In this document: one piece after another, positions 12,147 through 12,850 of the stretch
Position numbering within the stretch: position 1 is the stretch's first letter
Layout of the letters: the number at the start of each line of letters is the position of its first letter
IMG/VR virus record: IMGVR_UViG_3300044998_000776
Span: 1-55,828 of that record
From: a virus
Lineage: Duplodnaviria > Caudoviricetes
Reading direction: 5' to 3' (one strand)
DNA: 55,828 nucleotides
Translations under genes and position numbers: made by a program
Notes under the pieces: model-generated
Databases searched by the model: none
What the model was told of the DNA's origin: nothing
What the model saw: the letters and a program-made list of their open reading frames with translations, nothing else

Positions 12147-12497
12147 ATGCAAACGATGAAGAGAAATGAAGCATATGCCCGTGCTATAAAGGTTTTTGGC
12201 CCTTGGAACGCGTGGAAAAGAGAACACCATTTGGCTTACGGTTTGATCCGAGGGATCTCGTATTCCAAGATGGAAAAGTGCTGTAACGACAACCCGTTGG
12301 CGGTGCCTGTCGAATACGCGCTCTGGGCTCTGGGTGCCTGGCCCGAGAATGTCAAACCGAATGATGGCAAGTTCCATTGCATTCCTATCGAGTACTGCAA
12401 GGAAACTTGGGGGTTGATCCAGTGGGTCAAGAAGCCCGTCCGCGGACCCAAGATTCGGTCGGCTAACAAGCCGCAGCAGCAGGAGGCGGCCCAATGA
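12147..12497 (+). CDS. hypothetical protein translationally coupled to the pth gene
   Basis: AAAAGG SD before ATG 12147; REHHLAYGLIRGISYSKME motif; its TGA overlaps the next ATG. Confidence 0.75.
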   Translation: MQTMKRNEAYARAIKVFGPWNAWKREHHLAYGLIRGISYSKMEKCCNDNPLAVPVEYALWALGAWPENVKPNDGKFHCIPIEYCKETWGLIQWVKKPVRGPKIRSANKPQQQEAAQ

Positions 12498-12850
12498 GCT
12501 AGCTGTACAAACCCCTTCCCATCAAGGAAGGAGATAAGCTCTATATCGTGACTCGTGCTGATATCGATCCTGGTTATCAGATCGTTCAGTCTTGTCACGT
12601 GATTCGGCAATTTTCAGAAGACCATCCCGAACTAGACAAGGAATGGTTTCGAAATTCCAATTATGTTGCCTGCTTGTCAGTGCCGACCGAGAGGGATCTC
12701 GAATTGCTGTTGCAAAAGGCTCAAGAGAGAGGCATTCCCTGCTCTTCTTTCAGAGAGCCTGATATCGATGATCAGCTGACGGCTATCGCGCTAGCTCCCG
12801 GAGAAGCTAGTAAGAGGCTATGTTCCTCTTGCCGATTGGCGTTATGCTGA
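12494..12850 (+). CDS. pth2: PTH2-family peptidyl-tRNA hydrolase with an in-frame TAG at codon 3
   Basis: AGGAGG SD at 12481-12486, ATG-AGC-TAG-CTG, then KLYIVTRADIDPGYQIVQSCH...FREPDIDDQLTAIALAP...LCSSCRLAL. Confidence 0.82.

Follow-up and report, generated by a model that had tools for sequence, protein, structure and literature searches.

The DNA analysed here, called the window throughout, is the whole of the 55,828-nt viral record IMGVR_UViG_3300044998_000776 (Caudoviricetes), a linear fragment that CheckV estimates at about 15% of its genome, so that the source is a jumbo phage. The gene of concern, pth2, encodes a predicted peptidyl-tRNA hydrolase of the PTH2 family; its reading frame carries an in-frame TAG as third codon, and two tRNA genes with anticodon CUA lie upstream on the same strand. 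The features of the locus are given below, one per line. Loci of relatives are designated by L numbers; L118 is a relative with 87% identity.

11257-11784, plus strand: dual-specificity phosphatase gene (PF00782, E 2.4e-10), upstream of the tRNA genes and in synteny with 17 loci
11775-11849, plus strand: tRNA(CUA) copy 1, found by ARAGORN and by Rfam RF00005, with a cloverleaf fold
11854-11929, plus strand: tRNA(CUA) copy 2, found and folded in the same way
12126-12497, plus strand: upstream open reading frame (ORF) of 123 aa from the ORF list, family unassigned; its L118 homolog has the same position and 85% identity
12481-12486, plus strand: Shine-Dalgarno (SD) sequence AGGAGG, read from the sequence, 7 nt (CGGCCCA) before ATG 12494
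12494-12499, plus strand: two-codon leader ATG AGC (Met-Ser), read from the sequence; L118 has the synonymous ATG AGT
12500-12502, plus strand: in-frame TAG, codon 3, the proposed gate, read from the sequence; a homologous TAG is present in 40 of 64 clusters of relatives
12503-12535, plus strand: post-TAG N-terminal tail LYKPLPIKEGD, delimited by alignment A1 (15 sequences), comparison with L118 and an AlphaFold2 (AF2) model
12514-12531, plus strand: predicted hairpin CCUUCC/GGAAGG (6 bp, 6-nt loop) in the window and in L118, a minor feature
12536-12850, plus strand: PTH2-fold domain, from KLYIVTRAD to the end, TGA stop 12848-12850 included (PF01981, AF2, Foldseek, profile search of the PDB)
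12548-12550, plus strand: GTG, Val16 of the post-TAG protein and start of the ORF caller (ORF list under translation table 11), judged not to be the real start

The translated pth2 frame reads MS*LYKPLPIKEGDKLYIVTRAD... and stays open after the TAG until TGA 12848-12850. Its ATG (12494-12496) overlaps the TGA (12495-12497) of the preceding ORF as ATGA, an arrangement suggesting that pth2 may be translationally coupled to that ORF, whose protein has no Pfam or PHROG match. Among the 19 TAG candidates of the window, pth2 is the sole TAG frame with an SD-preceded ATG at most 12 codons 5' and no canonical start until 15 codons 3'. Because this layout is unique within the window and recurs in relatives, it is more than chance.

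In the tail that follows the TAG, LYKPLP corresponds to an 18-nt in-frame insertion, peculiar in alignment A1 to the lineage of the window; L118 reads LYRPLP there, its remaining changes being synonymous. In the window and in L118 alike, the hairpin would hold most of the internal SD-like AAGGAAGG in its stem. Its stability is marginal when compared to shuffled sequences: z is -2.3 in a 41-nt piece, but -1.5 and -0.6 in 85-nt pieces. A promoter and terminator scan of positions 11000-13500 gave nothing above shuffles.

The identity of the product was evaluated on the protein encoded after the TAG. It matches Pfam PF01981 (PTH2) with an E-value of 5.3e-7 and 30.3 bits (cut-off 23), over profile positions 2-103 out of 115; the K of KLYIV (residue 12) is the first residue matched, to profile position 2, and homology therefore starts four codons upstream of GTG 12548. 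The AF2 model, built with 15 homologs, has a mean predicted local distance difference test (pLDDT) score of 95.7: strand 1 is formed by residues 12-18, while residues 1-11 have no regular secondary structure. When this model is compared to the PDB by Foldseek, the ten best structures are all PTH2/Bit1 proteins (2zv3, 1q7s, 1wn2, 3erj and 1xty among them), with template modelling scores of 0.70-0.75 and E-values down to 3.6e-8. The family profile finds 2zv3 at E 8.5e-9, and places K12-L-Y-I-V-T-R on the initial strand of both 2zv3 and 1wn2, K12 corresponding to their first Lys. K12, R18, D87 and T93 are invariant in alignment A1; the conserved Lys, D and T of PTH2 proteins are presumably the catalytic residues. 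By sequence and modelled fold, the product is a PTH2-family peptidyl-tRNA hydrolase, of predicted activity.

The ORF listed under table 11 starts at GTG 12548 and encodes 100 aa. This start removes KLYI (residues 12-15), four of the seven residues of strand 1, the invariant K12 among them: the N-terminal strand with the conserved Lys is present only in a product that reads through the TAG. Since half of strand 1 would be deleted, homology and model indicate that the true start must lie upstream of GTG 12548. Of the canonical starts upstream, only ATG 12494 has a ribosome-binding site, and the TAG lies between it and the domain. The initial annotation, made from the sequence, had described the AGGAGG, the ATG with its ATGA overlap, the TAG at 12500-12502 and the frame open into KLYIVTRAD, and all of these are confirmed; it had also held that GTG 12548 would cut the first PTH2 strand, as Pfam, AF2 and the PDB alignment agree, and that the whole domain needs read-through of the TAG, which the domain match from K12 supports.

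A first search gave 11 homologous loci on viral contigs, at 40-60% identity. Eight of them feature an ATG, 1-8 sense codons and an in-frame TAG just before I-K-E-G-D-K-L-Y; the other three read M-A-R/T-I-K-E-G-D, with no stop. The TAG aligns with the Thr or Arg of M-A-T/R-I-K-x-G-D in uninterrupted relatives. A metagenome scan added 34 loci, some on the same contigs, of which 26 share the TAG architecture, and the TAG is also present in three out of three GenBank records of uncultured huge phages (LR756500, M-K-stop; LR756504, M-T-stop; LR756501, M-S-stop).

A profile-based search of viral contigs extended the set to 321 relatives; the best 80 of the 321 were analysed and, together with the window, clustered at 90% or higher protein identity into 64 clusters. 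Forty clusters, including the window, are TAG-interrupted, one is TAA-interrupted, one TGA-interrupted and 22 are uninterrupted. In 39 of the 40, no ATG, GTG or TTG is found between the TAG and the KLY motif; the exception is L028, where the motif includes an internal Met, and which was assigned to the TAG-interrupted class by hand. Leaders are short: counting the ATG, they have two sense codons in 22 clusters, three in 12, four in 4, one in 1 and six in 1. SD-like 4-mers precede the leader ATG in 24 of the 40 clusters; many of the others come from AT-rich phages without a visible SD.

The TAG is largely confined to this position. Only two additional internal TAGs (L029, L072) are found in the 3800 codons of the 40 genes, and none of these genes ends in TAG (TAA 25, TGA 15), while 4 of the 22 uninterrupted genes do; the TAA-interrupted gene ends in TAG, and the TGA-interrupted one in TAA. 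L118 keeps the AGGAGG, the ATG-AGT-TAG and LY(R)PLP, with synonymous or conservative changes, and both of its tRNA(CUA) genes lie at the same distance from pth2 as in the window. Since the TAG is kept in L118 and in 40 of 64 clusters, it is not a recent lesion. The GTG at 12548 behaves differently: its homologous position is occupied by GTT, ATT, ATC and other codons in relatives, and the GGAG that precedes it is GGTG in L118, a synonymous change.

By ARAGORN, the window has just two tRNA genes, each on the pth2 strand and with a CUA anticodon. They score 61.6 (copy 1) and 59.3 bits (copy 2) against Rfam RF00005, whose gathering score is 29. Both have the 7-nt anticodon loop CUCUAAA, with U33 and a purine at 37. 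Their bodies are unlike: copy 1 has G1-C72 in the acceptor stem and discriminator A73, copy 2 has U1-A72, discriminator G73 and an encoded CCA. Because acceptor stems and discriminators differ, the two tRNAs may carry different amino acids. The 166-nt stretch containing both is 97% identical between the window and L118, and copy 2 is identical over 76 out of 76 nt, whereas the proteins neighbouring the tRNAs are about 85% identical; this difference argues for constraint on both tRNAs.

The label "tRNA-Pyl" given by ARAGORN follows from the CUA anticodon only; no match to the PylS synthetase model TIGR02367 was found in the 55.8-kb record, weak evidence in a genome fragment. A nearest-neighbour isotype comparison places closest, among labelled phage tRNAs, other suppressor-type tRNAs or ARAGORN "Glu-ttc" calls, the latter probably being the same family with 8-nt loops. 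Copy 1 also contains, at tRNA positions 8-10, the TAG (11782-11784) that terminates the phosphatase gene.

Two unconventional uses of the UAG were considered and rejected. Initiation at the UAG by an initiator tRNA does not fit the folds of the two tRNAs, which, inspected by eye, have neither the C1xA72 mismatch nor the three G-C pairs of the anticodon stem, and an in-frame ATG is always found upstream. Quadruplet decoding of TAGA does not fit, since ATG, TAG and the PTH2 frame all share one triplet register.

Across the relatives, the type of stop corresponds to the anticodon of a neighbouring tRNA. Of the 40 TAG-interrupted representatives, 33 have a tRNA(CUA) in their 10-kb locus, as against 1 of the other 24 (Fisher p = 2.8e-10, kinship not corrected). 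This tRNA is usually on the same strand, 0.3-2.6 kb downstream, in several cases directly after the pth2 stop. Changes of stop type carry more weight than this p-value: the sole TAA-interrupted gene, L057 (M-A-TAA-N-K-L-Y), has a tRNA(UUA) 308 nt after the motif, while L064, its sister in the PTH2 tree (M-T-TAG-N-K-L-Y), has a tRNA(CUA) at 340 nt; in the TGA-interrupted cluster, L082/L084, a tRNA(UCA) lies 2.6-3.2 kb away. The order of genes around pth2 in the window (nicotinate phosphoribosyltransferase (NAPRTase) fragment, dual-specificity phosphatase, upstream ORF, pth2, PD-(D/E)XK nuclease) is syntenic with a high-GC group in which pth2 is uninterrupted and the suppressor-like tRNAs are of UCA or UUA type, with 8-nt anticodon loops. 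Anticodon and gate have thus changed within one syntenic lineage.

In this high-GC uninterrupted group, the tRNAs next to pth2 often form a tandem pair with the 8-nt anticodon loops AUUUCAAC and ACUUCAAA (examples are L051:6755-6908, L031:6327-6479 and L041:5347-5422). Their labels in ARAGORN are "ttca", "tc" or Glu-ttc; placing U33 in register gives the anticodon UCA, that of an opal suppressor.

Position-specific, matched to a tRNA and avoided as terminator of the same gene, the pth2 TAG behaves, by these sequence comparisons, as would be expected of a codon read as sense, and the neighbouring tRNA(CUA) genes are its likely decoders. The initial annotation had implicated the CUA tRNAs, a proposal supported by the way stop type tracks anticodon in relatives; the two objections that it had foreseen, an inactivating mutation of recent date and an active enzyme starting at GTG 12548, fail on the conservation of the TAG and on the poor conservation, in relatives, of both the GTG and its GGAG.

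The reading favoured here, to which a probability of about 0.72 is given, is a translational gate on a PTH2-type hydrolase, dependent on suppressor tRNAs. Ribosomes would initiate at ATG 12494, directed by the AGGAGG and coupled to the stop of the preceding ORF, and would meet the UAG at codon 3. With host release factor 1 (RF1) alone, termination would follow Met-Ser and no enzyme would be made. Expression of the tRNA(CUA) genes, which have the same orientation and lie about 570-720 nt upstream, and charging of their products would cause the UAG to be read as an amino acid, giving a product of 118 residues (Met-Ser-X and the 115 post-TAG residues). The stop being located in an unstructured N-terminal tail, the identity of the inserted residue would be irrelevant, a point that may matter if the two tRNAs carry different amino acids. 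The amount of Pth2 would thus depend on its mRNA level multiplied by suppressor activity; the tRNA genes having the same orientation as pth2, after it in many relatives and upstream of it in the window, this would amount to a natural feed-forward AND gate, tying a tRNA-recycling enzyme to the moment at which the phage begins amber suppression.

The sequence comparisons show how the locus is built, that translation must start upstream of GTG 12548, that the N-terminal stop is deeply conserved and that it corresponds to the anticodon of the neighbouring tRNA; we infer the charging of the tRNAs, their decoding of the pth2 UAG, the insertion of a residue and a reason for coupling Pth2 to suppression. 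One possible reason would be the recycling of peptidyl-tRNAs that drop off at early or hungry stops once suppression competes with termination. According to a published study, early and hungry codons favour peptidyl-tRNA drop-off, accumulation being maximal for stops at positions +2/+3 and reversed by Pth (PMC2490762).

A number of observations weigh against the gate. In seven of the 40 TAG-interrupted clusters, a tRNA(CUA) is missing to a distance of about 5 kb: ARAGORN calls a tRNA(UUA) instead in L056, and an Rfam scan of the other six loci found none; in these large genomes the tRNA(CUA) may be located elsewhere. Conversely, most of the 22 uninterrupted clusters lie beside suppressor-like tRNAs, and L053 and L040 have a tRNA(CUA) but no TAG; the gate is therefore dispensable. 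The association between stop and tRNA is inflated by shared ancestry: in the PTH2 tree, which is poorly resolved (104-residue protein, 108 alignment columns kept, 7 of 61 inner branches starred), independent contrasts number one on starred (well-supported) branches and five on all branches. A TAG adjacent to a start can also exist untranslated: in cluster C mycobacteriophages, exemplified by Myrna (L012:2474-2482) and Catera (L013:2474-2482), the GTG annotated as start of the PTH2 gene comes directly after an in-frame (G/A)TG-TAG, which separates it from the SD. The codon after the TAG is a rare table-11 start in 29 of the 40 clusters (ATT 23, ATC 3, ATA 2, and CTG 1, the window), which leaves some room for reinitiation in the gene studied here. 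Finally, the window being only about 15% of the genome, wide recoding elsewhere is possible.

Among alternative explanations, the one that survives best, although unlikely, is a feedback of the minigene type, also advanced in the initial annotation, in which the OFF state would release fMet-Ser-tRNA by drop-off, yielding a substrate for Pth or sequestering the tRNA, and Pth2 made in the ON state would bring relief. Two-codon minigenes such as lambda bar consist of an SD, an AUG, one sense codon and a stop, and cause drop-off of peptidyl-tRNA, the substrate of Pth; they are toxic when Pth is limiting. This anatomy, strong SD included, is that of the pth2 leader; leaders have 2-3 sense codons in 34 of the 40 clusters, and stops at +2/+3 are those where accumulation reversible by Pth is greatest (PMC2490762). 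The last sense codon before the TAG, however, takes 17 forms among the 40 clusters, so that no particular tRNA is targeted, as lambda bar would require. No route from a shortage of Pth to more read-through is evident, and a stop restricted to a tolerant, unstructured N-terminal tail would give short leaders just as well. Such a feedback, compatible with the gate and without specific support, would possibly add to it, not replace it.

Termination followed by reinitiation is improbable. ATG-AGC-TAG would be a real two-codon upstream ORF ended by RF1, with translation restarting at CTG 12503 (ATT in most relatives) and no suppressor tRNA involved. The rare start codons noted above fit this scheme, as do Myrna and Catera, where the GTG directly after the TAG is the annotated start. 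Yet in 11 of the 40 clusters the codon after the TAG is not a start (GTT 5, ACA 2, and one each of AAC, AAT, GGC and GTA), and reinitiation at the adjacent codon is impossible there; moreover, Ile or Val is kept after the TAG position in uninterrupted relatives too, as a plain protein residue. Reinitiation also leaves unexplained the tracking of stop type by anticodon (TAG/CUA, TAA/UUA, TGA/UCA) and the lack of TAG terminators in TAG-interrupted genes.

Internal initiation at GTG 12548, with an irrelevant TAG leader and an enzyme working without the first half of strand 1, has very little in its favour. Both the GTG and an SD-like GGAG (12530-12533) are present in the window, and gene callers placed the start at the GTG 12548 position in three of six database homologs (P0001, P0002, P0004); but KLYI would be lost, including the invariant Lys at which alignment with solved PTH2 chains begins, neither GTG nor GGAG is kept in relatives, the spacing of 14 nt is long, and the GGAAGG is predicted to be paired in the small hairpin.

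Equally hard to sustain is a genome-wide reassignment of TAG (code 15), which would make pth2 one of many recoded genes and its N-terminal stop meaningless: although a second TAG inside pth2 in L029, L072 and LR756501 indicates that some relatives are probably recoded, and only some 15% of this genome is visible, no other in-frame TAG gene was found in the window, and the TAG lies in the N-terminal leader of all 40 clusters, versus two TAGs in 3800 body codons. ORFs under table 11 already cover 95% of the window, its large ORFs, including the baseplate wedge gene at 21552-23414, have no TAG inside, and about 10 of the 74 ORFs of a greedy set are terminated by TAG. As far as can be seen in the 55.8 kb, the two suppressor tRNAs would serve a single codon.

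Two other approaches to recoding were abandoned. Coding density does not discriminate, as reading TAG, TAA or TGA as sense lengthens ORFs similarly in each case. The search for further recoded genes by homolog alignments spanning a TAG is confounded, as homologous DNA gives "homologous" translations also in non-coding, mostly antisense frames; every such match in the window is either antisense or upstream of a start. Concerning individual plus-strand ORFs ending in TAG, three have a second in-frame stop 6, 11 and 5 codons on (at 8710-8733, 17997-18035 and 19423-19443, respectively), so that suppression would add short tails only. ORF 3981-4976 ends in TAG in frame with a GIY-YIG ORF (5001-5309), and read-through would fuse the two.

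The suppressor-dependent gate proposed for pth2 has partial parallels among known systems. In prfB, the gene for release factor 2, an early in-frame UGA is passed by a +1 frameshift, and the factor thereby autoregulates by sensing its own product. As in prfB, making a termination-related factor would require passage of an in-frame stop near the beginning of the gene, by which the condition of the termination system is sensed; unlike in prfB, passage would be in frame and would sense a tRNA rather than Pth2 itself. The difference from lambda bar is that the pth2 frame goes on to encode a conserved enzyme, the stop corresponds to a suppressor tRNA linked in cis, and the last sense codon is not conserved. 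A synthetic counterpart exists in the "leak dampener" built in E. coli, where a co-induced suppressor tRNA and a nonsense codon make a low-leak AND gate (Ho et al., PMC7969014); the pth2 gate would be its natural, conserved counterpart, a translational AND gate of a kind that synthetic biology arrived at independently.

Phage-encoded suppressor tRNAs, with reassignment of TAG or TGA, have been proposed to gate late and lysis genes (Borges et al., 10.1101/2021.08.26.457843). Common to those phages and to the window is a phage-borne suppressor tRNA proposed to switch on genes with in-frame stops in a host of standard code. The available preprint text describes a "code change module" (tRNA, synthetase, release factor) in standard code, and recoded genes that are structural or lytic, and contains no occurrence of peptidyl, hydrolase or Pth. 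Here, instead, 56 kb of otherwise standard-coded sequence has a single such stop, the third codon of a small gene for translation maintenance that lies next to the tRNA. PTH2 has been noted across jumbo phages, with a proposed role in ribosome rescue by peptidyl-tRNA hydrolysis (Iyer et al. 2021, PMC7824862); the family is the same, and the available part of that article mentions neither suppressors nor an in-frame stop. Thus PTH2 in jumbo phages and, as a hypothesis, stop-codon gating by phage suppressor tRNAs are already known; what appears to be new is a conserved N-terminal stop in pth2, matched to the adjacent tRNA even where the rest of the genome is standard-coded. A full-text literature search, with subscription journals and supplementary files such as recoded-gene lists outside it, returned no description of an N-terminal stop in a hydrolase gene matched to the anticodon of an adjacent tRNA.

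Suppressor tRNAs are widespread in phages, and their targets in standard-code phages are unknown, explicitly so for Xanthomonas phage XacN1. Like the source of the window, XacN1 is a jumbo phage with standard code and two tRNA(CUA) genes; read-through of 18 amber stops reportedly gave no targets (Yoshikawa et al. 2018, PMC5852040). The authors looked past the ends of ORFs, whereby a candidate target would have been missed: ORF364 (L131:1955-2815), in which an HD-like domain is fused to PTH2, has an ATG-AAG-TAG four codons before the annotated start, with AGAGGA upstream. The same fusion, preceded by ATG-AAG-TAG, is found in the cultured Stenotrophomonas jumbo phage CM1 (L132). A pattern search for the CUA loop in XacN1 gave no match, and is uninformative. 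The pth2 stop is a concrete, conserved and testable candidate target of suppression, located within the first few codons and corresponding to the anticodon of the adjacent tRNA. It would connect amber suppression with the recycling of peptidyl-tRNAs, and exposes a systematic annotation error, as gene callers cut pth2 at an internal codon (in the three of six database homologs) or miss the leader.

A second gene of similar design is found in relatives. The architecture of the leader was searched for on both strands of the 40 TAG-interrupted representatives (386,794 bases): pth2 itself was matched in 38 of the 40, and 27 other places were found, versus a background of 17 for TAA and 12 for TGA. 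Thirteen of the 27 belong to one neighbouring gene family and two are PTH2 N-terminal fragments. The family, phrog_14850 (function unassigned), corresponds to the gene immediately upstream of pth2, for a protein of about 190 aa with an H-D-C-G-K-P motif; it opens with an ATG, 1-12 codons and a TAG, after which no start follows (L017:4409-5002, and the corresponding site in L020-L023, L026, L037, L042, L049, L055 and L061-L063). Its AF2 model has a pLDDT of 93.8, and the best Foldseek rows, weak ones, are 3wfo and 3wfq ("tRNA processing enzyme", E 4e-3), followed by HD-domain hydrolases. On sequence grounds it is a putative second amber-gated gene of the pth2 operon of relatives; it is absent from the window.

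Taken together, these data allow a broader and tentative proposal, for which the odds are below even. The suppressor tRNAs of standard-code jumbo phages would be neither idle relics nor mere first steps of recoding; with tRNA-maintenance genes gated by N-terminal stops (PTH2 and, in many relatives, the HD-like gene) they might form a dedicated, ancient circuit, in which the tRNA acts as inducer of a small translation-repair operon and stop and anticodon co-evolve (TAG with CUA, TAA with UUA, TGA with UCA). The gated genes could then supply the targets that "orphan" suppressors, those of XacN1 among them, seem to lack, and might have been the seed of whole-genome recoding.

Other neighbours of pth2 in relatives deserve mention. 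Phage tmRNA genes lie 1-1.6 kb upstream of TAG-gated pth2 in three loci (L004:1374-1723, L059:3551-3905, L069:3790-4143), and point to a ribosome-rescue theme. In mycobacteriophages PTH2 is embedded among tRNA genes; 206 records of cluster C mycobacteriophages were matched. In the next tRNA-like gene (Myrna L012:2966-3037, Catera L013:3105-3178) the anticodon loop has 9 nt and reads CUUCUAAC(C) for Catera, CUUCUAAAC for Myrna; the gene is called CUA by ARAGORN and Arg or Ser in the records, and scores below the Rfam tRNA threshold. In L070 (1927-2688) and L077 (1706-2450) a second ORF opens with M-T-TAG-INHKLIIITRRDLHPGYQAV, that is with the PTH2 N-terminus and its gate, and continues as a protein resembling HNH/NUMOD3 homing endonucleases; it looks like a mobile endonuclease carrying or splitting the 5' end of pth2.

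Within the window, a T4 Rnl1-type RNA ligase is encoded on the minus strand at 42784-44031 (PF09511, E 1.7e-13), and fits a tRNA-repair theme together with PTH2 and the tRNAs. Upstream of the phosphatase gene lie a 2Fe-2S ferredoxin gene (10327-10641) and a short NAPRTase-family ORF (10939-11247, 102 aa), whose residues 2-50 match positions 173-221 of a 239-position profile; this NAPRTase piece is kept in 11 syntenic loci.

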